From positions 64,794-128,793 of the forward strand of contig JBFKVA010000001.1 in the NCBI GenBank assembly GCA_041635475.1: a stretch of 64,000 bases of DNA, given 5' to 3'. Positions within the stretch are counted from its first letter, which is position 1. Each line of letters starts with the position of its first letter. The translations under genes and the position numbers were made by a program. The DNA comes from Acidimicrobiia bacterium (GTDB lineage: Bacteria > Actinomycetota > Acidimicrobiia > Spongiisociales > JAENVV01). Positions 2,918 to 49,382 of this stretch are shown one piece after another. The notes beneath the pieces were generated by a model. The model saw only the letters and a program-made list of their open reading frames with translations, ran no database searches and was not told the origin of the DNA.

Positions 2918-4383
2918 TCGGCACCTCGCAGCGCTTCGAGCAAAGTGTTGACATCGTCTGCTTCGTCCAAGAGGTCCCCGACGTGGGCCCGGGTCCCCCT
3001 CAGCGGGTCAAGCATAGGCACCCGCTTGTAATGCCCCTGTTGGTCGTCGAAGATCATGGAGTCCCAGTTGGCCGAGACGAGGTCTCGGCCGAACTTCTCG
3101 ACGCACCGGCCCCGGAAGTACGCCCGGGTCGTCTCGGGCGGCGCCACCACCGCGGCCCGTACCTGCTCGGCGCTGAAGAGGCGCTGCATGGCGCCCTTGC
3201 CCACGAGACGCTGGTAGATGCCCCGGTCGTTGCGCAGGTCGTGGTATTGGAGGTCCATCGTCTTGATCCGGGCGTCGCTCCAGTCCGCTCCCCGCTCGAT
3301 GGCTCGCCGGTACAGGCGCAGCTTGGCTGCCCAGTCGAGGCGGTCGGCGACGTGATCCGGGCCCTGCTCGAGTCCCTCCAGCAGCGACGTCCAGGCCTCC
3401 AGCAACCCGCCGGCCCAGGCCAGGTCCGCGTGCTGGGCGTAGTCGGAGAGCCAGCGGTGGTACTGCCACTGCATGTCGAGCGCCGTGAGCTTCCTCCCAT
3501 CCGCCAACAGGAGGGGCTTGGCCAGGCCTGTGTCGCGGCTCACGTGCCGGGCGGCACCCACCGGGTGGGCCAGGGCGAGGTCGTCGGACAGGACACCATC
3601 CTCCAAGGCCGCCAGGAAGAGCGCCAGGCAGCCGAGTTTCACGTAGGTCTGCACCTCCGACCTCGTCGCATCGCCGAAGATGACATGCAGGCGTCGGTAG
3701 CGGTTGTCGGCGTGGGGCTCGTCGCGCGTGTTGACGATGGGACGTTTGAGGGTCGTCTCGAGCCCGACGACAACCTCGAAGAAGTCCGCCCGTTGCGTCA
3801 GCTGGAAGCCGATGTCGCCGTGCCCCGCCTCTCCACCCACCTTTCCACCACCCGAAATGAGCTGACGGGAGACGAGGAAGGCCGGGAGAGCCTCGACGAT
3901 GCGCTCGAACGGAAGGGACCGGGCAAGAAGGACGTTCTCGTGGTAGCCGTAGCTGTTGCCCTTGCCGTCGGAGTTGTTCTTGTAGAGGGCGAGTTCCTCA
4001 CCTTCCCGGAGCAGCTCCTGGGCGGAGGCCATCGCAATCCGGCAGACCTCTTCGCCGGCCACGTCGTAGAGCGCGGCGGTGAGTGGGTCGTCTGCTTCCG
4101 GGGAGCTGTACTCGGGGTGGGCGTGGTCGACGTAGAACCGAGCCCCGTTGCTCAGGACCGTGTTCACCGCAGCCGCCTCGTAGTCGGGTTGGAAGGCTTC
4201 GATGATGGTCTCGCGGGCGTCCCGCCGCGGGTGCTCGGTGTCGTACGACCACGAGAAGCGTCCTCGCGCCTGGCTCACCGAGTTGACGACGAGTGCCGAG
4301 GCCAGGGAGGGATTGAAGTCGATGGCGTTGCGGATGTGGATCCCGAACTCGGTTTCCGTACCGAGCACCTTCGGGATGGCCAT
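2914..4383 (-). CDS. dop: Pup deamidase/depupylase Dop
   Basis: 489-aa [22 protein letters not shown]...with the long Dop-specific insertion loop. Position is immediately upstream of pup. Confidence 0.85.
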   Translation of the reverse strand: MAIPKVLGTETEFGIHIRNAIDFNPSLASALVVNSVSQARGRFSWSYDTEHPRRDARETIIEAFQPDYEAAAVNTVLSNGARFYVDHAHPEYSSPEADDPLTAALYDVAGEEVCRIAMASAQELLREGEELALYKNNSDGKGNSYGYHENVLLARSLPFERIVEALPAFLVSRQLISGGGKVGGEAGHGDIGFQLTQRADFFEVVVGLETTLKRPIVNTRDEPHADNRYRRLHVIFGDATRSEVQTYVKLGCLALFLAALEDGVLSDDLALAHPVGAARHVSRDTGLAKPLLLADGRKLTALDMQWQYHRWLSDYAQHADLAWAGGLLEAWTSLLEGLEQGPDHVADRLDWAAKLRLYRRAIERGADWSDARIKTMDLQYHDLRNDRGIYQRLVGKGAMQRLFSAEQVRAAVVAPPETTRAYFRGRCVEKFGRDLVSANWDSMIFDDQQGHYKRVPMLDPLRGTRAHVGDLLDEADDVNTLLEALRGAE

Positions 4384-6089
4384 CAGAGGTAGTGGCCGGT
4401 TTGCACCGTTTCGACCGTACGCTGTTCCTCAGCCCTCCCACCGGCAACGGTGCGCACATACGCGATTCGCTCGCCCTTCCTCCCGGAGACCTTGGCCCAG
4501 TCATCGGGGTTGGTGGTGTTCGGGAGGTCCTCGTGCTCGGTGAACTCCTGGCGCACCGAGTCGGTGAGGTCCTCGGTGGTGATTCCGCCGTCGCCGCCGT
4601 CCAGGAGGCGCTTGATGGCGTTCTTCTTGGCCCGTCGAACGATGTTCTCGATCATCGCTCCCGAGGCGAAGTCCTTGAAGTAAAGGAGCTCCCGGTCACC
4701 CCCGGCGTAGGTGACCTCGATGAACTCATTGACGGGACTCTTGGCGTACATGCGCTCGACGACGTCCGCGATCCGGGCCTGGCGATGTTCGGCCTCCTCA
4801 CCGAACTGGTCGGTGTTGAACGGTAGGGAGGCGGGCAGGTAGATGGAGAAGATCTGGCGGGCCGCCTCCTCGTCGGGCCGGCTCACCTTGATTTTCACGT
4901 CGAGGCGTCCGGGCCGCAGGATGGCAGGGTCGATGAGGTCCTCGCGGTTGGAGGCCCCGATGACGATGACGTTCTTGAGGGCCTCCACCCCGTCGAGCTC
5001 CGACAAGAGCTGTGGGACGATGGTCGACTCGACATCCGAGGAGATCCCGGTGCCGCGGGTCCGGAAGAGGCTGTCCATCTCGTCGAAGAACACGATCACC
5101 GGCACGCCCTCCTCGGACTTCTCGCTCGCCCGCTGGAAGATGAGGCGGATCTGCCGTTCGGTCTCACCCACGTACTTGTTGAGGAGTTCCGGCCCCTTGA
5201 TGTTGAGGAAGTAGGAGCGGGCGTCCGTGTCGCCCGTCCGCTCCCTCACTGCGGCGGCCAGCGAACTCGCCACGGCCTTGGCGATGAGCGTCTTGCCGCA
5301 GCCGGGGGGCCCGTACAGGAGCACGCCCTTGGGCGCTTCGAGGGCGTAGTCGTCGAACAGGCTCTTGTGCACGTACGGCAGTTCGATGGCGTCCCGAATC
5401 GCCGTGATCTGGTCGGCCAACCCGCCGATGTCGTCGTAGCCGACGTCGGGCACCTCCTCCAGGACGAGTTCGTCCACGTCGGGGCGCGGGACCTTCTCGA
5501 GGGCGACCGATGACTTCCCATCGATGCGAACATGGTCGCCGACCCGCACGGGGACACCGGCGAGGGCACCGGAGATGAACACGACCCGTTCGTCGTCACC
5601 CCGCCCGAGGACGAGAAGTCGGTCCTCGTCGAGCCGGTCCTTGACGGTCACGACATCGCCCAAGCGGTCGTACTCGAGCACTCGCACGATGTTGAACGCC
5701 TCGTTGAGGAGAAGGTCCTGCCCCGGCTTGAGTTCCTTGACCTCGATCGAAGGTTGGGCGCTCACCCGCAGGCGCCGCCCACCGGTGAGCACGTCGACAC
5801 CGCCATCGTCTGCGACGCCGAGCACGATTCCGAAGGCGGACGGGGGGGCGGTGAGCCGATCCACCTCTGACCGGAGGAGTGCCAGCTGCTCCCGGGCCTC
5901 CTGGAGCAGGGACGCCAGCTTGTCGTTGCGATCGCGCAGGCGGTCCACCATGTCCTCGGCGTCGGACAGCTGTCGTTCGAACACGCGACGGTCGGGCGTC
6001 GTCGACAGCGCGTGGCGGAGCCGGGCGAGCTCGTCCTCGAGTCGCTGGATCTTCGCCTGGGCGAGCGGGTCGCCGTCGTCTCGTTCCAC
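4383..6089 (-). CDS. arc: proteasome-associated AAA ATPase ARC/Mpa
   Basis: 568-aa ORF with an N-terminal coiled coil, Walker A GPPGCGKT, and C-terminal ...GHYL (GQYL-like proteasome docking motif). Confidence 0.9.
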
Positions 6090-6162: not shown

Positions 6163-6198
6163 CGCCGAGTCCCCGGCCGGGAGACCGGGGACTCGGCG
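6163..6198 (-). terminator. perfect 14-bp stem hairpin downstream of ferredoxin / upstream of arc
   Basis: cgccgagtccccgg-ccgggaga-ccggggactcggcg. A second 7-bp hairpin (cgggcac...gtgcccg) lies at ~6133-6157. A TATACT -10-like box sits ~30 nt before the arc ATG. Confidence 0.4.
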
Positions 6199-11717: not shown

Positions 11718-11802
11718 GGCCAAACACCGTAGCCGTTCGCCGGTCCACAACGCACTGTCGCCCGGCCGGGGGCCGGGCGACAGGAATCCAACTCGGTGGC
11801 TG

Positions 11803-16977: not shown

Positions 16978-17024
16978 GGTGCGCCCCCGGCGACCACGAC
17001 CCTTTTCTCACGCGGGGGCGCACC
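16978..17024 (+). terminator. 12-bp perfect-stem hairpin after the membrane protein gene
   Basis: ggtgcgcccccg ...23 nt... cgggggcgcacc. Confidence 0.4.
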
Positions 17025-28555: not shown

Positions 28556-29247
28556 ACCGATCCCCGCCTCCAGGCGACGCCCAACAGCCGCGGGATGTGC
28601 TCGTGGCCGGCGTATCCCGGGTCGCGCTCGATCATCCCGGCCGAGACACCGTGCTCGGTGAGGCGCTGAAGGCACCAGCCGGCGCCGGCCGCCGTTTCGA
28701 GGAGCTCACCGAGTGGCCGATGGTGGAACCGGACCGACGTGGGTCCGGCCGGCTCCAGGATGGAACCACCCCCGAAGTACCCCCCCGGGCGCAGGAACAC
28801 CTCGCCGTCGGTGGGGTCGGTCACGGGAGCGGCCCCGGGGGCGGTGAGCAGCGGGTGGTTGACGACGAGCACGCAGCGGCCGCCATCGCGGGTCACGCGG
28901 GCCAGCTCCTCGAAGACACCTTCCAGGCTGGGGAGGTGTTCGAGGACCAGGGAGACCACGACTGCGTCGACCGACCGGTCGCGCACCGCCGCCAGCGAGG
29001 GAAGGCGACCCACGAACGACCCGCCGGCCATCGCCGCCAGCCGCGGGGACAGGTCCATGCCCACTGCCTCAGCCCCCCGGCCTCGGAGAAGCCGAAGCAC
29101 GCGTCCCTCACCGGCGCCCACCTCCAGCACCCGGAGGCTGGTGACGGGGCCGAGGAGGTCGATGAGCACCGGCTCGACCTCCTCGGCGTAGGCCGGATCG
29201 GCTGCCTCGCCGATCCACCACTCGGCGAGCCGGTCCCACTCGCTCAC
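28552..29247 (-). CDS. class I SAM-dependent methyltransferase
   Basis: [10 protein letters not shown] motif I. 231 aa. Confidence 0.65.
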
Positions 29248-38822: not shown

Positions 38823-38944
38823 GTGGCCCTCCGTCGGTTGGCGTCGCCATCAGTTTACGCCGACCGGAGGGAGCCCTCGCCAAAAGCGGACGCGGAGAGG
38901 TCCCGGCCGGGGCCGGGACCTCTCAATCCTCGCGGGGGCGGCGG

Positions 38945-43322: not shown

Positions 43323-43598
43323 TCAGTCGTCGAAGGAGGCGAGGAGACGTTCGAGCTCGGCCTCCCGTGCCCGGAGGCGGTCCCGCGTCCTGGCCAGCGC
43401 CTTCTCGAACCGTGGAAGGTCGCCCTTCACCTCGCCGTAGAAGGCGCGATCGTCGGCGTTCCCGGCGATGGCGTCCCGATGGGCGTCGTCGTGGATGTGG
43501 CGATGGTAGTCGACCTCGGCGGCCAGGCGACCTTCATCCGCGCGCAGGACGTCGATCTCGTCCCGGAGTCGAAATGCCTTGCGCTCGATGCGTCCCAT
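43323..43598 (-). CDS. hypothetical protein (charged, His-rich; 91 aa)
   Basis: ORF between polA and the tRNA. Reasonable codon bias, no recognised domain. Confidence 0.4.
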   Translation of the reverse strand: MGRIERKAFRLRDEIDVLRADEGRLAAEVDYHRHIHDDAHRDAIAGNADDRAFYGEVKGDLPRFEKALARTRDRLRAREAELERLLASFDD

Positions 43599-43638: not shown

Positions 43639-43721
43639 CGCGTGCCCGGCCGGGATGGCGGAATGGTAGACGCGACGGACTCAAAATCCGTTGCCCGCAA
43701 GGGCGTGCGGGTTCGAGTCCC
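43639..43721 (+). tRNA. tRNA-Leu (anticodon CAA)
   Basis: Manual fold: acceptor GCCGGGA/TCCCGGT, D-arm GCGGAATGGTAGACGC, anticodon stem ACGGA/TCCGT with loop CTCAAAA, long variable arm, T-arm GCGGGTTCGAGTCCCGC. Confidence 0.85.
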
Positions 43722-43883
43722 GCTCCCGGTACGAAGTGAGGTCGGCCTTGTGCCGGCCTCGATTCGTCTTGGCGTGGGACACACGAGCCCGTCGGCGAAG
43801 CCGCGGGTTCGCTACGACGAGCGCAGCGAGGAGTGCCGAGCACCGGCGCAGCCGGGCGCAGGCCGTCCCGCTCCCGGTACGAA
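43722..43883 (+). repeat. decayed tRNA-Leu 3'-end copies, including a 19-bp exact direct repeat of the tRNA 3' end
   Basis: gtcccgctcccggtacgaa occurs at ~43707-43725 (genuine tRNA 3' end) and again at ~43865-43883. Between them lies a T-arm-like gaagccgcgggttcgctacgac fragment. Confidence 0.6.
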
Positions 43884-43885
43884 AC

Positions 43886-43945
43886 CCCGTTTTCCCCCGC
43901 GGTAGGTCCGCCCTGGACGGACAACGGGCGGGGGAAAACGGGTCG
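43886..43945. repeat. ~58-nt hairpin-forming repeat, copy 1
   Basis: cccgttttcccccgc-ggtaggtccgccctggacggacaacg-ggcgggggaaaacggg. 15-bp outer stem plus inner stem. Paralogous to 46141-46200. Confidence 0.6.
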
Positions 43946-43948
43946 CGG

Positions 43949-44200
43949 TCAGGAGTACTCGCTCACCGGATAGATCTCGTCGGCTACGAGGCCGTGGGCT
44001 TCCCGATGAACCGTGTGTGCCGCGTCGGCGTCGGGAGCGTCGACCAGGCAGAAGATCCTTCCAGCCTCTTCATCCACCCAGTACCGCAGGTAGCTCACCG
44101 CGTACTTGTCCTGCGTGGCCAGATCGGCTTGATGGGCACCGGCCACATCACTCGCCGAGACTCCGCCTTCGATGTTGTGGACATCCATGAACAGGGGCAT
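43949..44200 (-). CDS. DUF4242 family protein
   Basis: MPLFMDVHNIEGGVSASDVAGAHQADLATQDKYAVSYLRYWVDEEAGRIFCLVDAPDADAAHTVHREAHGLVADEI, typical DUF4242. Confidence 0.65.
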   Translation of the reverse strand: MPLFMDVHNIEGGVSASDVAGAHQADLATQDKYAVSYLRYWVDEEAGRIFCLVDAPDADAAHTVHREAHGLVADEIYPVSEYS

Positions 44201-44274
44201 TGCGTGTTCCTCCATCTGTCTCTGGCCCCGGCGGATTCCGGGGCCTTCCGCGGATGAAAGCCGACGGCTGTTTG

Positions 44275-46114
44275 ATGGGGCGTTTGATGAGTCCTATCGT
44301 TGGTGGCATCCCGTCGTCCAGCCTCACCATTCACCTCCTCGGACGTCCCGCCATCGTCCAAGGGGACGGGGAGCCGTATCGCATTCGCAGCCAGAAGAGC
44401 TGGGGGCTCCTCGCCTACCTCATCCTGGCCGAACGCCCGCCCAGTCGCCCACAGCTCGCGACGCTGCTGTTCTCCGAGGCGAATGATCCACTCCGAGCAC
44501 TCCGCTGGAGCCTGGCTGAGATCCGCCGGGCACTCGGCGATTCGGCTCGGCTGGAGGGCGACCCGGTCGAACTCCATCTCGCCGAGGGCACGATCGTGGA
44601 CATCGATGTGGTGACTCGCGGTGCGTGGACCGACGCGGTCCTCCTGCCCGGCCTGGGCCAGGATCTCCTGGAAGGCACGAACATCAGGAGCGCCGCAGCG
44701 TTCGAGTCCTGGCTCGTGTCGCAGCAGCACCACTTCGGCGCAGGCTCGGAGGCCATACTCCACGAGGCGTCTCTGGCTGCCTTGACGCGGGGCGCCGTCC
44801 AGGACGCCACCGACTACGCCGTGCGACTCGTCTCGATGAAGCCGTTCGACGAGAACCACCAGGCCCTGCTCATCAGGTCGTATGAGGCGGCTGGGGACCA
44901 CGAGGCAGCCCTCAGACAACTCGCCATCTGCACCGAGCTGTTCGAGCGGGAGCTTGGCGTTTCTCCAGGCGTCGCCGTTCACGACGCCGCCCAGGCACCA
45001 CCGACTCACGACCACACGCCGACAGACGCGACATCCATCGAGGCCCTCCTCGAGGCCGGATCGGCCGCGGTGGGGGCCGGTGCCATCGAGGCCGGGGTCC
45101 GATCGTTGCGCGCCGGTGTCGGCCTCTCCGACGCCGGCGGCGTCGGAGAGGCTGCGGGTGAGGTCGCGCCTCGCCCTGGCGGAGGCATTGATCCACTCAC
45201 TGCGCGGCAGGGACGAGGAGGGAATCGCCGCGCTGCACCAAGCCGGTGAGATTGCGCTTGTCCACGGCGAGAACGACCTGGCCGCGGCAGTCAGGGCTGA
45301 GCTCGGCTATGTCGACTTCCTCAGGGCCCGGTACGACAGGGCCGAGCGCTGGCTGCTCGACGCACTCCGACTCGGTGGCCGGACGGCTCCCACCGCGGCG
45401 AAGGCCGCCATGTACCTCGGTTCGGTGGAGAGCGATCGAGGCAACTACCTCCGGGCCATGAACCACTTGACGGAGGCCCTGGCAGCGACGAAGACCACCG
45501 GTGACCGGCGAGGCGAGGCGTACGCGTCGTCCATGGTCGGCCGGATCCACCTCCTGCGAGGGGACCTGGATGGGGCCGCTCGTGAGCTCGAGACGTCGAT
45601 CGAGCTCGCCGAGTCCGATCACTGGCTGGCCTTCCTGCCTTGGCCACAAGCTCTCCGGGGGGAGGTGGAACTCGTCCACAACGACCTCGATGGTGCATCC
45701 GAGCGCCTGGAACAGGCATTCGCCCGCGCCTGCCAACTCGGGGATCCGTGCTGGGAGGGAATCGCCGCTCGCGGGATCGCCCTTGCCACCGAGATGGCCG
45801 GGGAACCGGCGCGGGCGCTCGAACTCCTGGGCGACGCTCGTGCCCGGTGCAACCGCCTGTCGGACCCGTATGTGTGGCTCGACGGCTACATCCTGGACTC
45901 GCAGTGCACGCTCGGCCTCCGCCACGGGCATCCCGAAACCTCCCGCTGGATCGGACAGCTCCACGAACTGGCGTCGCGGACCGGGATGCGGGAACTCGTC
46001 GTTCGATCGCTGGTGCATCGGGCCGCCATGGGTGGCGTCGGAGACCTGGAGGCTGCCGCGTTGCTGAGGGCGGAGATCGACAACCCCGCCCTCGATCGGG
46101 TCGTCCCGACGTAG
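44275..46114 (+). CDS. SARP/AfsR-family transcriptional regulator (OmpR-type wHTH + BTAD + TPR), interrupted by an apparent frameshift near 45140-45170
   Basis: ORF 44200..45249 holds the wHTH/BTAD region (LTIHLLGRPAIVQGDGEPYRI...LRALRWSLAEIRRAL...YEAAGDHEAALRQLAICTELFERELGVSPG). ORF 44882..46114, in the +1 frame, continues from the junction with TPR-like repeats (RLRSRLALAEALIHSL...). No plausible independent start for the second part. Confidence 0.6.
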
Positions 46115-46140
46115 GCGGCGCGGGTCCGGTCCCCAACCTC

Positions 46141-46200
46141 TCGTTTTCCCACGCGATATGTCCGCCCTGGGCGGACAACGGGCGTGGGAAAACAGGAATG
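46141..46200. repeat. ~58-nt hairpin-forming repeat, copy 2
   Basis: ctcgttttcccacgc-gatatgtccgccctgggcggacaacg-ggcgtgggaaaacagg. ~85% identical to copy 1, with a compensatory c:g to a:t stem change. Confidence 0.6.
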
Positions 46201-46252
46201 GGAGTGGGGGCACGCTCAGGTTTCGCGGGCGACCGACCGATGCCATATACGT

Positions 46253-47443
46253 ATGTCAGGCATCACCGTCGTCTCGCCATCGTCCGAGTTCACCGAGCGG
46301 CTCACCCTGGTGCTCCTCGGCGAAGCCCATCTCACCATCACATCGTGGTGGGACGAGTTGGTGGCCGCCCAACCCGAGTACGCCACCGAGGTGATCCAGG
46401 AGACCGAACCCTCTCTCATCGTGCTCGGACCGGGACTCGACCGCGACACCGTGCTGGACCTGGCAGCCGAGCTGCACCACAGGATGCCCGAGGTGTCCGT
46501 GGTGGAGATCGCCGAGCCCGACCCATCCCTGTTCCCCCAGGCGATGAGCGTCGGCATCAAGGACATCATCGCCGAGGATGCCCCGTTCGACGTGCTCCGA
46601 GACCGGATCAACCGGGGGCTGGCGGTCTCCGAACGCCTCAGCGCCCGCCGCACGTCCATCAAGGACGTCGAGCGGGGGTCACTCGTGGTCGTGGTCGCCC
46701 CCAAGGGTGGCACCGGCAAGACCTCCACCATCACCAACCTGGCGATCGTCTTGAGCCAGCAGTACCCCGGTGAGGTGGTGCTCGTCGACCTGGACCTCCA
46801 GTTCGGGGGGGTCTGCGAGACCCTGCTCCTCGAACCGTCGTACACCATCTCCGACGCCGCCCAGGTCCGGGGTCCCCTCGACGCCACCACGGTGAAGGCG
46901 ATGCTCACCCCCCGTGAAGGACTGTTCGTCCTGGCCGCCCCCGGCTCCCCCGAAGAGGCCGATGTGATCGACTCGGCCCTCGTGGAGACCGTCGTCTCAT
47001 CGCTCACCGCGGCGTTCACGTGGGTGCTCGTCGACACCGCGGCCGGCATCAGCGAGGAAGCGATCTGGGTGATCGAGAACGCGTCCGACATGCTTCTCCT
47101 CGTGTCGGAGGACGTCCTCTCGCTCACCTCGATGCGCAAGACGATGGGGCTCCTCGATCAGCTGGGGTTCACCGCATCGGCCCGCACCCTCATCCTCAAC
47201 CGGGCCAACAGCAAGGTGGGCCTCGACACCCAGTCGGTCGAACGGTCCCTCGGCGCCCGCGTCGACGTCGAACTGCCATCCACCCGCCTCGTGCCGATCA
47301 GCCTCAACCGGGGTGAGCCGTACGTGGAAGCCCGACCCGACTCGACCATCTCCCGCCGGATCGCCGACATCGCCGTCCGGCTCACCAACTCGCGGGAGCG
47401 ACGCCGGTCCTCCCTCGTGGGGGGGACGTCGGCCGGACACTGA
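46253..47443 (+). CDS. TadZ/CpaE-like protein: N-terminal pseudo-receiver + ParA/MinD-type ATPase
   Basis: Deviant Walker A VVVAPKGGTGKTSTITNLA. N-terminal ~130-aa receiver-like fold lacking the phospho-acceptor Asp. No other tad/flp genes in the window. Confidence 0.7.
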   Translation: MSGITVVSPSSEFTERLTLVLLGEAHLTITSWWDELVAAQPEYATEVIQETEPSLIVLGPGLDRDTVLDLAAELHHRMPEVSVVEIAEPDPSLFPQAMSVGIKDIIAEDAPFDVLRDRINRGLAVSERLSARRTSIKDVERGSLVVVVAPKGGTGKTSTITNLAIVLSQQYPGEVVLVDLDLQFGGVCETLLLEPSYTISDAAQVRGPLDATTVKAMLTPREGLFVLAAPGSPEEADVIDSALVETVVSSLTAAFTWVLVDTAAGISEEAIWVIENASDMLLLVSEDVLSLTSMRKTMGLLDQLGFTASARTLILNRANSKVGLDTQSVERSLGARVDVELPSTRLVPISLNRGEPYVEARPDSTISRRIADIAVRLTNSRERRRSSLVGGTSAGH

Positions 47444-47566
47444 AGCCCCGGCCGGCCAGACGGAGCCTCTCTTGTCCCACGAATGGTGGGTGAACAAGGA
47501 CCAAGAGTGATAGCCTGTGGACCCGGCCCATGCAGGGTGAGGCTGGCCCAACGCTCGGAGGGTGGT

Positions 47567-48568
47567 ATGACCTTGCCTGAATGGCTCAACGGAAGCGACC
47601 GCCATACCGGGCTGTGGCTCGTCCTGGGCCTCTCGCTCCTGCTGATCCCGGCCGCGGCGTGGGCGGCGGGAGGGACCACGACCGGCGTCGTGATCCTCCT
47701 GGCGGTCCCGGTGGCGGTGGCCGGTGCCGCCCTCGGCACACGGGCGGGGGCCTGGACCGGGCTGGCCGCCGGCGCCCTGGCTGCGCTCGTTCCGTTCTCG
47801 GTGGACCTGGGAACGGCCCAGTCGCCAACCCGGGCGGTGCTACGCCTGGTGACGTTCGTCCTCGTGGGCTGGTTCGTCGGCTACGTGAGAGCCGGCCTCC
47901 TCGAACTGTCCCGCTCCCGATCCCGCTTCCTCTCCACGGTGAGCCATGAGCTGCGGACCCCCCTCACGTCGATCGTCGGGTACTCGGAGATCCTCCACGA
48001 GCGTCGCCATGAACTCGGCGACCCGGCGGTCGTGGAGATGGTCGAGCACCTGCACCGCGAGAGCTTCCAGATGAGCCACACCCTCGACCAGATGCTCGTG
48101 GCGGCCCGAATCGACACGGGTTCCCTGCCGGTCGACGCCCGGCCGGTCGACCTGCGGGCAACCCTTCAGGAGGTCCTTGAGCACCTTCCACCCATCGGCC
48201 TCCCGTTAGACGTCGACGTCGAGGGAACGGCCGTGGCCGTCGCCGATCGCCTCCGGGTGACACAGATCTTCCGCAACCTCCTGGTTCACGTGAGCGAGGT
48301 GACGGAGAGCGCGACAGCCGAGGTTGCCATCTCGTCCAACGGCGAGGCCGTCGTCGAACTCACCTACACCGGCGACTCCCTCCTCGCCGACCCCACCTTC
48401 CGCCTCTTCGCCCCGCTGTTCAGCCAGGGACCCCGGGTGGACATGGGGGTCGAGCGGTGGCTCCCGCTCGCGGTCTCCAAGCAGCTGGCCCGTCTCATGG
48501 GCGGGGACCTGGACCATTTCTCCCACGGTCCGACCTCGACGTTCCGGCTCCTCCTGCCCGCGTCCTGA
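47567..48568 (+). CDS. membrane histidine kinase with intact HisKA but degenerate ATP-binding domain
   Basis: 3 TM segments. H-box STVSHELRTPLTSIVGYSE. N-box RNLLVHV (Asn replaced by His). G1/G2 glycine boxes not recognisable. Confidence 0.65.
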   Translation: MTLPEWLNGSDRHTGLWLVLGLSLLLIPAAAWAAGGTTTGVVILLAVPVAVAGAALGTRAGAWTGLAAGALAALVPFSVDLGTAQSPTRAVLRLVTFVLVGWFVGYVRAGLLELSRSRSRFLSTVSHELRTPLTSIVGYSEILHERRHELGDPAVVEMVEHLHRESFQMSHTLDQMLVAARIDTGSLPVDARPVDLRATLQEVLEHLPPIGLPLDVDVEGTAVAVADRLRVTQIFRNLLVHVSEVTESATAEVAISSNGEAVVELTYTGDSLLADPTFRLFAPLFSQGPRVDMGVERWLPLAVSKQLARLMGGDLDHFSHGPTSTFRLLLPAS

Positions 48569-48602: not shown

Positions 48603-49382
48603 ATGTGTTCGATGTCGTATCGTCCCCGGATGGACGACCTCAGGGCAGAACTCGACCTCCTCGAGCGGCGGTACGGGTCCGTCGCGGACGTCGCGGACGT
48701 CACCCGGCTCCAGATCGCCCGCCAGCGTCATAACCACGAGTTGGACCGTGTCAACGCGGAGTTGGACGAGCTGTTGGTACGGCGGCGGGTGACCGTCGAC
48801 TCGATCGAGCGCCTCATCGCGCTGGAGCGCGAGATCCTGCGACGGGCCATCGACGGGGAACGCCGGCGTCGACGGGAGGGCTGGTCCCCCACGCCGATCC
48901 TGGGGTTCCGGGCGTGGACCATCGAGCGCGGCCGCCTCCACGGAGCCGTCGAACCGTGGCTCGGTCTCACGATGGAAGCGACATGCCGGACGGTCACCGC
49001 CCAGGACGAGGTTCCCCACTCCGACGGTCGGTGCGGGGCCCCGGCGTGCGGTATCTACGCCCTCAAGCGGGCCATCGACATCCAGGACGTCACCGGCTGG
49101 CCCACCGAACACCTGGCCCTGGGGATGGTGGCGCTCACCGGCAAGGTCGTCGAGCACGCCCTCGGGTACCGCGCCCAGCGGGCCCAGGTCGTCGCCCTGG
49201 CCGTCCAGCACCCGGACGGCGTCGTGTTCGTCCCCCACCCGGTCGACCTGTGGCCGATCCTGGACGGGGCCGGTCCAACCCGGGACGTCTTCGGCGCCAT
49301 CGACCCCTACCCAGCCATGTGCCAATGGTTGGAGGTACAGAAGGAGACGCACGAATGGACATCGGTGAACAGGACCGCGTGA
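48603..49382 (+). CDS. hypothetical protein: N-terminal coiled coil + C-terminal Cys/His-containing domain
   Basis: Start ambiguous (48603 MCSMS / 48630 MDDLRAEL). Charged heptad-like N-terminus. C-terminal ...GRCGAPACGIYALK...HPDGVVFVPHP.... No known domain recognised. Confidence 0.5.
   Translation: MCSMSYRPRMDDLRAELDLLERRYGSVADVADVTRLQIARQRHNHELDRVNAELDELLVRRRVTVDSIERLIALEREILRRAIDGERRRRREGWSPTPILGFRAWTIERGRLHGAVEPWLGLTMEATCRTVTAQDEVPHSDGRCGAPACGIYALKRAIDIQDVTGWPTEHLALGMVALTGKVVEHALGYRAQRAQVVALAVQHPDGVVFVPHPVDLWPILDGAGPTRDVFGAIDPYPAMCQWLEVQKETHEWTSVNRTA

Follow-up and report, generated by a model that had tools for sequence, protein, structure and literature searches.

The attL and attR sites of tRNA-linked islands, and the integrase-less derivatives of such islands (CIMEs, cis-mobilizable elements), have been reviewed (PMC5704250). 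In the high-GC Actinobacteria, GC-rich 3' hairpins that lack a U-tract ("I-shaped" hairpins) have been discussed, and whether these terminate transcription or merely stabilise 3' ends is disputed; mycobacterial RNA polymerase requires a U-tract for intrinsic termination in vitro (PMC3993855). The correction of quasi-palindromes by template switching has likewise been described (PMC8794818, PMC8604942, PMC7202029). Here we analysed a 64-kb stretch of an Acidimicrobiia chromosome (the window), in which an earlier reading of the letters (the sequence-only reading) had noted a pair of hairpin repeats and proposed that they were functional RNAs. We hold with moderate confidence that a direct repeat with palindromic cores brackets a cassette of two genes, SCO4226-like and SARP, at a variable tRNA-Leu(CAA) hot spot.

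As in tRNA-linked islands and CIMEs, the insertion lies directly 3' of a tRNA gene, both in the window and in a second genome (L042). The distal repeat appears to hold a copy of the tRNA 3' tail, though a short one. Again as in these systems, occupancy varies among relatives, which show an empty site, other islands or tandem tRNA 3'-end units, the cargo is younger than its flanks, and the repeats flank DNA without mobility genes; a CIME would in addition be mobilised in trans by a cognate element. Indeed, by Pfam, no integrase, recombinase or transposase was found in 43.9-49.4 kb of the window or in the other scanned open reading frames, and no integrase gene accompanies the candidate att site. 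Unlike in these systems, only 7-19 nt of tRNA are repeated, the greater part of the repeat being downstream of the tRNA and taking in a gene fragment. The locus also has a microhomology junction and no known cognate integrase or ICE, and its excision is hypothetical.

The hairpins resemble I-shaped hairpins in that a strong, GC-rich stem-loop without a U-tract follows a stop codon by a few nucleotides, in the style of four other post-stop hairpins of the window. They differ in being nested, in their unusually long stem (ancestrally, it appears, 22 bp), in being duplicated within a larger repeat and in carrying a T-run inside the 5' arm and an A-run inside the 3' arm. Like integron attC sites, they are 50-to-60-nt imperfect palindromes in direct orientation that bound a promoter-poor cassette, with structure conserved over interior sequence. 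However, the R''/R' cores of attC (RYYYAAC...GTTRRRY) are absent and the arrangement found here, 5'-GTTTTCC...GGAAAAC-3', is the opposite one; there is no intI or attI, the two genes are divergent, and the repeat reaches into the flanking genes. Membership among integron attC sites was rejected on the reversed core arrangement and on the lack of an IntI-like frame among the scanned open reading frames. REP/BIME sequences, MITEs and IS200/IS605-derived PATEs are similar as extragenic imperfect palindromes at gene ends, but the present hairpins are not multicopy, have no terminal inverted repeats or target-site duplications, and are flanked by sequence from a tRNA and a host gene. With two copies in 64 kb at one locus rather than many dispersed ones, they do not belong to the REP/BIME or MITE families; IS200/IS605 membership was also rejected, since the element is not multicopy and no terminal inverted repeats, target-site duplications, RAYT gene or TnpA gene were seen.

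Anatomy of the direct repeat and its hairpins

The hot spot is anchored by the tRNA-Leu(CAA) gene at 43649..43732 on the + strand (ARAGORN; Rfam, 61 bits). It is followed on the same strand by a ~148-nt unit (43733..43883) that contains the tRNA's own canonical terminator hairpin (43737-43761), a T-arm-like sequence (GCGGGTTCG) and a 19-nt stretch (43865-43883) that copies the tRNA 3' end at 43717-43735 without a mismatch. Hairpin 1 begins 5 nt past this unit and its 19-nt copy. The left direct repeat (43865..43965, +; orthologous to 2114-2206 of L042) is made up of this copy of the tRNA 3' end, a linker, hairpin 1 and the last codons and stop of the SCO4226-like gene. In the right direct repeat (46118..46218, +), hairpin 2 stands between degenerate remnants of the tRNA tail and of the SCO4226-like 3' end. 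The repeat is ~93-100 nt long and the bracketed cassette 2.25 kb; the repeated unit comprises the last 7-19 nt of tRNA-Leu, an 8-nt linker, the palindrome and ~21 nt of the SCO4226-like 3' end. Similarity between the window copies runs past the hairpin on both sides. Outside its hairpin, the right repeat of the window is degenerate, and the evidence on the origin of these parts comes mainly from L042.

In L042, the same hairpin pair surrounds the same cassette, and the hairpin begins 9 nt past the tRNA itself. The repeat there (85-93 nt, 92% identity) includes CCCGGT(AC)ACAACCCC from the tRNA end and 26 nt over the SCO4226-like stop region. The string CCCGGT..ACAACCCC recurs before hairpin B, so that 6-8 nt of tRNA plus the linker are repeated, which is short for a classical att core; the equivalent in the window is degenerate. 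The right repeat of the window ends at GCTCA, the start of the native region upstream of a ParA-like gene, and from GCTCA onwards to the right the sequence aligns with what lies upstream of the ParA-like ortholog in L053, an unrelated locus. On both sides of the cassette, the junctions are the same in the window and in L042, which rules out independent duplication in each lineage.

The hairpins are nested palindromes of 51-55 nt in direct orientation, copy 1 at 43888-43942 (+; 51-nt core, 43889-43939) and copy 2 at 46142-46196 (+; 51-nt core, 46143-46193). They match at 49 of 55 positions (89%), or 46 of 51 in the cores, and hence are 89-90% identical rather than ~85% as first estimated. In both copies, a perfect 12-bp outer stem (GTTTTCCCNCGC/GCGNGGGAAAAC) encloses the second, inner stem that had been described, GTCCG(CC)/(GG)CGGAC, of 5-8 bp. 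The 15-bp outer stem of the sequence-only reading is present in copy 1, where flanking CCC/GGG adds to the 12 bp; copy 2 has 12 bp with a partial extension. The pair and its one compensated stem change were confirmed: 43897 C:43931 G in copy 1 corresponds to 46151 A:46185 T in copy 2, and this is the single such difference. The 7-nt centre of the palindrome is CCCTGGA in one window copy and CCCTGGG in the other. A degenerate 51-nt pattern matched twice in the window and never in 100 shuffles, and the predicted folding energies were -39 to -43.5 kcal/mol (z-scores of -3.0 to -6.7, either strand). G-U pairs do not settle the strand, since they favour the - strand in window copy 1 and the + strand in L042 copy B. 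The ancestral palindrome probably had perfect 22-nt arms, and in one arm five central nucleotides have decayed freely in each lineage.

Cargo genes and gene ends

The hairpins flank cargo, as had been suggested, and this cargo consists of two divergent genes. The first (43949..44200, -) encodes an SCO4226-like (DUF4242) protein of the small nickel-binding family (Pfam PF14026, E = 8e-26; a match to NCBIfam NF033706 was under the cut-off), which is 83 aa long from MPLF, with the open reading frame reaching 44215. Its C-terminus, PVSE(H/Y)S, is kept in homologs that have no hairpin; therefore, the repeat copied gene sequence and the gene end did not come from a mobile element. A MITE insertion that supplied the C-terminus was rejected on the same ground. 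The second gene (44287..46114, +) encodes a SARP/BTAD-TPR transcriptional regulator, of which intact homologs have 598-608 aa; the window gene has a +1 frameshift near 45149. Within it lies a perfect 15+1+15 palindrome (45122..45152, unstranded). Three changes, the +1 nt among them, separate it from the quasi-palindrome of L042, and each of the three perfects the palindrome. These changes are a signature of template switching and the cause of the frameshift. Directly after hairpin 2, with 56 nt between the hairpin and the start codon, is the gene for a ParA/MinD/CpaE-like ATPase (46253..47443, +; profile match), which is older island content. Exact-protein look-ups of the window's SCO4226-like protein, of its polA and of P0241, a ParA-like protein 100% identical to that of the window, returned no record.

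Hairpin 1 lies 7 nt past the SCO4226-like stop, between the convergent tRNA-Leu and SCO4226-like genes, and hairpin 2 lies 29 nt past the SARP stop, between the SARP and ParA-like genes. The window has six further perfect hairpins of 11 bp or more; four sit 10-57 nt past stop codons and none of the six has a U-tract. Downstream of the two hairpins, the + strand reads TCGCGGTCAG and AGGAATGGGA, and the - strand GTTTCGTACC and GAGAGGTTGG; no U-tract follows either hairpin on either strand, and a consensus terminator scan found only the tRNA's own terminator. A canonical intrinsic terminator, with a hairpin and an immediate 7-to-9-nt U-tract, was thereby ruled out, and because the U-tract needed by the mycobacterial polymerase in vitro is missing, true termination here is doubtful. 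The earlier proposal of terminators or insulators thus does not hold in its canonical form, but the 3'-end position and the conservation of the stems beyond neutral sites make such a role plausible, and the hairpins most likely act as 3'-end or terminator-type hairpins. It counts against this account that tRNA-Leu already has a canonical terminator at 43737-43761.

Stem conservation and concerted evolution

The stems of window copy 1 and L042 copy A were identical at 34 of 34 positions, compared with 0.72 at 4-fold sites (P about 1e-5), whereas the interior and loop matched at only 6 of 17 positions. The stems were conserved across three genomes, and GTCCG-N7-CGGACAA was invariant in all five copies. 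The sequence-only reading had taken the compensated pair as a sign of selection on RNA structure and had suggested a covariation analysis. That analysis, of 20 pairs in five sequences, was not significant: it gave one double change and two one-sided G-U changes, and at least one double change also occurred in 158 of 500 shuffles (the chance expectation being ~0.05 compensated pairs). One event in five copies, equalled so often in shuffles, did not bear out the proposed selection. Moreover, template switching at the DNA level gives the same signature and has visibly been active inside the cassette, so the pair is weak evidence for selection on RNA. Template switching accounts for the compensated change and for arm homogenisation without selection, with the perfected palindrome at 45122-45152 as a further product and the frameshift as its cost. 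However, template switching is a way in which mutations arise rather than a functional class, and it does not explain the invariance of the stems between genomes.

Copies within a genome were more alike than copies at orthologous positions. The paralogs were identical at 46 of 51 core positions in the window and 49 of 51 in L042 (copy A versus copy B), whereas the orthologs were identical at 40 of 51 (window copy 1 versus L042 copy A) and 37 of 51 (window copy 2 versus L042 copy B). The two copies have therefore evolved in concert (90-96% within genomes versus 73-78% between them). The cassette is also younger than its flanks: between the window and L042, identity at 4-fold sites was 261/364 (0.72) in the cassette and 350/724 (0.48) in the flanks (Fisher P = 2e-13), with an intermediate value of 0.59 for the ParA-like gene. 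Synonymous identity fell gradually away from the cassette, with no sharp drop at the hairpins, so that import by homologous recombination fits at least as well as mobility specific to the cassette.

The locus in related genomes and searches for further copies

In L049 the site is empty, with tRNA-Leu and the ~148-nt unit followed by trpA. The tRNA-Leu position is occupied by a different island in L041 and by IS481 and Fic content in L039. The ~148-nt unit occurs once in L040, once in L049 and three times in tandem in L041. The contig of L040 ends exactly at the hairpin. The genome of L041 has a ParA-like ortholog at another locus, without the hairpin. The two-gene module adjoins a tRNA in three contexts: it is next to tRNA-Leu at this locus, to a tRNA 3' end where L043 starts and to tRNA-Asn in L048; no repeats flanking the module were found in L043 or L048.

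A covariance model of the hairpin found no further copy in the window (also with filters off) or, apart from orthologous positions, in ~200 kb of related loci. In the window, the tRNA was the only Rfam match, and Rfam has no family for the hairpins. No homologous copy came from the scans that covered the GTDB species representatives, the JGI metagenomes, IMG/VR and PLSDB, although the GTDB and JGI scans demanded exact matches, which diverged copies could escape. Two pattern scans of IMG/VR gave zero matches. An inner-stem pattern matched 11 times among the GTDB representatives, never with the outer stem; five of these 11 matches represent a different conserved element of Acidimicrobiia. An outer-stem pattern matched 27 JGI metagenome loci, which comprise several unrelated hairpin families that share only the required 12-mer; no tRNA lies near any of the 27, and Rfam matches none of them. 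When the hairpin and the complete cassette were compared with plasmids and phages by BLAST, the only similarity was in DUF4242 coding sequence. The small structured RNA or MITE family envisaged by the sequence-only reading is thus not in evidence, since the hairpin has two copies at one locus and none elsewhere in the window, in ~200 kb from relatives or in the public pattern scans.

Discussion

On balance, we favour the view that the hairpins are the palindromic cores of a larger direct repeat, that is, an ordinary recombination scar that carries gene-end hairpins, and not a new RNA family. Because the repeat holds fragments of the tRNA and of the neighbouring gene, it originated by segmental duplication or integration. 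Because the L042 repeat contains the tRNA tail, the palindrome and the last SCO4226-like codons, copy 2 appears to be a vestige of a duplicated or integrated unit. The mode of duplication and the role at RNA 3' ends are what we infer from these features. Copy 2 would be the remnant of a second or older copy of the unit, joined through the 5-nt microhomology GCTCA to the region upstream of the ParA-like gene, either by Campbell-type integration or by tandem duplication followed by deletion at the tRNA-proximal site. With no integrase or transposase in the island or the scanned open reading frames, an integration event would lack an identified enzyme; it also counts against this account that only 7-8 nt of tRNA are clear in the distal repeat, whereas a classical tRNA att core is longer. 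The likeness of the copies may be maintained by gene conversion or recombination between them. The hairpins belong to a larger duplicated segment. Processes at the DNA level, namely gene conversion and template switching, account both for the resemblance of the copies and for the compensated pair. Around the stems, which stay constant, the repeat decays, most likely because the stem-loop marks gene 3' ends; its role would be that of a terminator-type hairpin without a U-tract or of a block to 3' exonucleases, in line with the other hairpins that follow stop codons in this genome. The repeat may also permit recombination of the cassette.

Alternatively, the palindromes could be true recombination sites (att cores, or attC-like folded single strands) served by a recombinase encoded elsewhere, with GTCCG-N7-CGGAC forming inverted binding arms around a 7-bp overlap and the two genes forming an integrase-less, CIME-like mobilizable cassette that targets the tRNA 3' flank. 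Direct repeats with a tRNA 3' tail flanking a cassette beside a tRNA, the youth of that cassette, the empty or alternative sites in relatives and the three tRNA settings of the module are all consistent with such sites, as are the unchanged GTCCG-N7-CGGACAA in five copies, the homogenisation of the two copies within each genome and the L040 contig that stops at the hairpin. However, no recombinase gene was found in the island or the scanned frames, and the module in L043 and L048 has no flanking repeats. Moreover, the SCO4226-like fragment and the microhomology junction are signs of illegitimate or homologous recombination and not of precise site-specific exchange, the 7-nt centre differs between the window copies, viral contigs, plasmids and phages gave no match, and synonymous identity declines without a sharp boundary at the hairpins. 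We regard true recombination sites as unlikely.

It is more doubtful that the palindrome is a DNA operator for a dimeric protein (a regulator of the cassette or of the ParA-like gene, or one that binds a parS-like site), for which sequence and not structure would matter. Both arms are conserved in sequence with almost no covariation, the ancestral form was apparently a perfect palindrome with 22-nt arms, and hairpin 2 is just 56 nt upstream of the ParA-like start, all of which would suit an operator. But hairpin 1 lies between two convergent 3' ends, where a promoter is not expected, the ParA-like ortholog of L053 has no such site upstream, and the five nucleotides at the centre of one arm could decay in each lineage. 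SARP regulators recognise direct heptamer repeats and are not known to bind palindromes, which also counts against an operator.

We give little credence to the idea that the palindrome is the site of an undescribed cassette system, in which integrase-less modules with one ~50-nt foldable palindrome are inserted at tRNA 3' ends in Acidimicrobiia by a recombinase encoded elsewhere. Such a system would be analogous to integron attC cassettes, but aimed at tRNA flanks, and it would fit the locus in view of the three tRNA settings of the module, the concerted evolution of the copies and the young cassette. Finally, a dispersed family (REP, MITE or PATE type) or a small structured RNA under structural selection is most improbable, for although the nested structure folds stably, shows one compensated pair and one G-U change and has stems conserved across three genomes, there are only two copies in 64 kb at one locus, none in ~200 kb of relatives' DNA outside orthologous positions, none in the GTDB, JGI, IMG/VR and PLSDB scans, no Rfam match and no significant covariation, and the repeat contains host-gene fragments.

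The locus cautions that, when two repeat copies differ by one compensated pair, a functional RNA is only weakly indicated. It is also a clear case, from the little-studied Acidimicrobiia, of a variable region linked to a tRNA, in which a conserved two-gene regulatory module has been exchanged at a tRNA-Leu hot spot more recently than the surrounding chromosome. If the cassette were found to be excised via its repeats, it would represent a minimal mobilizable unit without an integrase.

Two hairpin repeats bracket a cassette beside tRNA-Leu(CAA)

A repeat search of the window returned a single 55-nt direct-repeat family (43888-43942 and 46142-46196, 89% identity), both copies of which are also inverted repeats; this confirmed the two hairpin repeats of the sequence-only reading, which had put their identity at about 85%. 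The 51-nt core of hairpin 1 (43889-43939) reads GTTTTCCCCCGC-GGTAG-GTCCGCC-CTG-GACGGAC-AACGG-GCGGGGGAAAAC, and that of hairpin 2 (46143-46193) reads GTTTTCCCACGC-GATAT-GTCCGCC-CTG-GGCGGAC-AACGG-GCGTGGGAAAAC. The outer stem of the cores is a perfect 12 bp (15 bp in copy 1 once CCC/GGG is added), and the inner stem is 5 to 8 bp. Predicted folding energies on either strand were -39 to -43.5 kcal/mol, with z-scores of -3 to -6.7, and a degenerate hairpin pattern occurred in none of 100 window shuffles. The compensated stem change reported earlier was also present (43897 C / 43931 G in copy 1 versus 46151 A / 46185 T in copy 2).

Among named polA homologs, those of Acidimicrobiia MAGs were closest, which identifies the source as an Acidimicrobiia bacterium. 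To the left of the hairpins lie, on the minus strand, rpsA and then polA (to 43265) and a 91-aa gene (43323-43598), followed on the plus strand by tRNA-Leu(CAA) (43649-43732), with its own canonical terminator (43737-43761), and by a unit of approximately 148 nt (43733-43883) whose last 19 nt (43865-43883) exactly repeat the tRNA 3' end. The cassette between the hairpins consists of an SCO4226-like gene (minus strand, 43949-44200) and a frameshifted SARP/BTAD-TPR regulator gene (plus strand, 44287-46114). Beyond hairpin 2 are plus-strand genes for a ParA/MinD/CpaE-like ATPase (46253-47443), a histidine kinase (47483-48568), and an uncharacterised product (48624-49382), and then trpA and trpB on the minus strand from 49473.

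The hairpins resemble other gene-end hairpins of the window

Hairpin 1 is located 7 nt past the SCO4226-like stop codon, and hairpin 2 is located 29 nt past the SARP stop codon and 56 nt ahead of the ParA-like start codon. A scan of the window for perfect stems (11 bp or longer) found eight: the two hairpins, a palindrome at the SARP frameshift, an intergenic hairpin (6163-6198), and four long, GC-rich, perfect hairpins lying 10 to 57 nt after stop codons (11755-11783, 16978-17024, 29149-29187, and 38895-38924). A U-tract was absent from all eight. From the scan, 3' hairpins without a U-tract seem to be the ordinary mark of gene ends in the source genome, a mark that hairpins 1 and 2 match in position and style. 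Since mycobacterial RNA polymerase did not terminate in vitro at hairpins without a U-tract (PMC3993855), we infer a role that may be either terminator-type or 3'-end protecting. The earlier proposal of terminators flanking the cargo thus held insofar as the hairpins bracket the cassette at gene 3' ends, but the lack of a U-tract places them outside the canonical intrinsic terminators. A canonical bidirectional terminator was likewise excluded, since on either strand the T-run falls in the 5' arm and the A-run falls in the 3' arm.

Occupied, empty, and alternative sites in related genomes

Three informative contigs were reached through polA homologs, and a related genome with an equivalent hairpin pair (L042, GCA_041624815.1) was reached through a SARP homolog search. 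In L042, whose SARP is 85% identical to that of the window, the order is the same: tRNA-Leu, hairpin A, SCO4226-like gene, intact 608-aa SARP, hairpin B, ParA-like gene, and trpA. The L040 contig (polA 96% identical) remains colinear with the window across the tRNA and its 148-nt unit, then stops exactly at the end of hairpin 1, providing a third hairpin copy; a break there would be expected from a repeat longer than the assembly k-mer. In L041 (polA 82%), three tandem 155-nt units come after tRNA-Leu, the hairpin is absent, and the shared genes and trpA are preceded by a different island with a Laminin_G_3 protein. L049 (polA 72%) is an empty site, in which tRNA-Leu, a terminator, and one unit are followed directly by the trpA stop codon.

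Several other features of these loci were recorded. The histidine kinase gene, between the ParA-like gene and a shared 251-aa gene, is missing from the otherwise colinear L042, which reads as a further indel within the hot spot. In contig L039 (1-2082; GCA_041624325.1; polA 100% identical), homology to the window ends 9 nt into tRNA-Leu (window 43657 onward) and gives way to an antitoxin-like 64-aa gene, a Fic/Doc gene, and an IS481-family transposase; either IS-mediated tRNA disruption or a chimeric contig would account for the break. The unit of approximately 148 to 155 nt (window 43733-43883; L041 9071-9535, three in tandem; L049 9425-9569; L040 63-209) comprises a terminator, a T-arm-like GCGGGTTCG, about 55 nt more, and the tRNA 3'-end copy. 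It is conserved between genomes with saturated synonymous sites, RNAalifold predicted 47 pairs in it, 13 with double changes, and it may represent a fossil att site or a structured RNA not yet described. The conserved SCO4226-like and SARP-TPR gene pair adjoins a tRNA in each of three genomic contexts that are unrelated (L043 1-60, the L043-L047 contigs beginning with a tRNA 3' end; L048 5212-5285, tRNA-Asn; and window 43649-43732, tRNA-Leu), and SARP homologs of about 598 aa are very widespread among Acidimicrobiia, at about 60% identity.

Age of the cassette and origin of the repeat

Identity at 4-fold sites between the window and L042 was 0.86 for the SCO4226-like gene, 0.74 and 0.66 for the N- and C-terminal parts of SARP, 0.59 for the ParA-like gene, 0.49 for polA, and 0.45 for both trpA and trpB (pooled, cassette 261/364 versus flanks 350/724; P = 2e-13). 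Since the flank values are near the approximately 0.41 expected at saturation under C/G bias at these sites, the higher values in the cassette show that the two genomes have a more recent common ancestry there than in the surrounding chromosome. Synonymous identity drops gradually on either side of the cassette, with no abrupt step at the hairpins.

In L042 the direct repeat is longer than 51 nt, extending over 85 nt ungapped at 92% identity (2122-2206 versus 4373-4457) and about 93 nt with a 2-nt indel allowed. Its 5' side, CCCGGT(AC)ACAACCCC, is the tRNA-Leu end plus linker, and its 3' side takes in 26 nt at the end of the SCO4226-like gene, with the last codons and the stop codon. The SCO4226-like proteins of L043 and L048, whose genes have no nearby hairpin, share the conserved C-terminus PVSE(H/Y)S; thus, the repeat copied gene sequence, and a mobile element as the source of this gene end was ruled out. 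To the right of the repeat, from GCTCA onward, the window and L042 sequences both align to DNA upstream of a ParA-like ortholog that, in the L041 genome, occupies a different locus (L053) with no hairpin. Given this junction and the content of the repeat, hairpin 2 is probably the vestige of a second or older unit (tRNA tail, palindrome, and SCO4226-like 3' end), with a 5-nt microhomology at its junction to the ParA-like gene. In window repeat 2, the non-hairpin parts are down to roughly 50% identity and the hairpin is still at 90%.

Within-genome copies are identical at 46/51 (window) and 49/51 (L042) positions versus 40/51 and 37/51 for positional orthologs, and the junctions on both sides are common to the two genomes, which together imply one ancestral event followed by concerted evolution. 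The window 3' arm (CGGACAACGGGCGGGGGAAAAC), when reverse-complemented, gives exactly the 5' arm of hairpin A in L042 (GTTTTCCCCCGCCCGTTGTCCG). The ancestral palindrome was therefore probably perfect, with arms of 22 nt; five nucleotides of one arm have probably degraded since then in each lineage, so that the nested look would reflect decay. The 34 stem positions are identical between the window and L042 at 34/34 and 31/34, versus 6/17 for the other positions (copy 1 stems against the neutral-site identity of 0.72 in the cassette, P = 1.4e-5), indicating stems that are constrained or homogenised at the level of sequence.

Selection on RNA structure, which the sequence-only reading had drawn from the compensatory change, was not supported by the covariation analysis that it had proposed: the five copies from the window, L042, and L040 contained two one-sided G-U changes and a single double change, the latter equalled in 158/500 shuffles. 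Five random substitutions would be expected to give about 0.05 compensated pairs. Template switching homogenises inverted-repeat arms and yields compensated hairpin changes (PMC8794818, PMC8604942), and such a nonselective source appears to be visible in the SARP gene of the cassette. There, a +1 insertion near 45149 splits the gene into two reading frames and, with two substitutions relative to L042, converts a quasi-palindrome into a perfect 15+1+15 palindrome (45122-45152), a textbook mark of template switching, with an assembly artefact at a palindrome as the alternative.

Alternative readings and known systems

We considered it unlikely that the palindrome is a true recombination site on which a recombinase acts in trans. 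Such a site would agree with the linkage to a tRNA, the invariance of GTCCG-N7-CGGACAA, the homogenised copies, the youth of the cassette, and the occurrence of the module beside three different tRNA genes, but the distal repeat carries a gene fragment and microhomology, the module occurs elsewhere without flanking repeats, the age boundary is not sharp, and neither the island nor the other ORFs scanned yielded a recombinase, integrase, or transposase. A protein operator is more doubtful still, for it fits the sequence-level conservation but not the position of a hairpin between convergent 3' ends. The dispersed RNA, REP, or MITE family, proposed earlier as a small structured RNA/MITE family, is very improbable and is contradicted both by the composition of the repeat (tRNA tail, SCO4226-like 3' end) and by copy-number searches.

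In those searches, a 3-mismatch search of the 64-kb window found the two copies only, a covariance model of the five copies gave no additional match above noise in the window with filters off, and the same model found orthologous copies only in about 200 kb of related DNA. No homologous copy was returned by BLAST against plasmids and phages or by pattern scans of public collections (two of IMG/VR, one of GTDB species representatives, and one of JGI metagenomes), and an Rfam search matched the tRNA only. The absence of further copies is therefore strong, although not absolute, because the pattern scans required exact matches and, of the source genome, the searches covered the 64-kb window. The JGI metagenome matches were unrelated hairpins, having in common with the window hairpins only the 12-mer required by the pattern.

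The JGI and other metagenome contigs (L012-L038) hold several unrelated, well-conserved long hairpins with the outer 12-mer GTTTTCCCNCGC/GCGNGGGAAAAC, among them GAGCAGTTTTCCCTCGCG...CGCGAGGGAAAACTGCTC in soil contigs of 61-66% GC and a low-GC family with two tandem copies in L025; no tRNA lies close to any of these hairpins, and the subset searched (L012, L017, and L025) had no Rfam match. Separately, five Acidimicrobiia and Actinomycetes MAGs share a near-identical noncoding stretch, GGAACGGAGACCCGGTCCGACGGAGTCGGACAACGGGCGAGTACCGCAGAGTCT (L005 at about 3340-3450 and matching parts of L007-L010), which had no Rfam match in the two loci searched (L005 and L008) and may be a regulatory element or a conserved RNA not yet described.

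The hairpins belong to no Rfam family, and the locus is neither an integron attC site nor a REP/MITE and agrees only in part with a classical integrase-borne island. Rather, it behaves as a CIME-like islet: small, linked to a tRNA, lacking an integrase, and with att-like direct repeats that include a putative 3'-end hairpin. Together, these results give no support to a novel structured RNA; the observation itself is real, and the history of the repeat is of interest.
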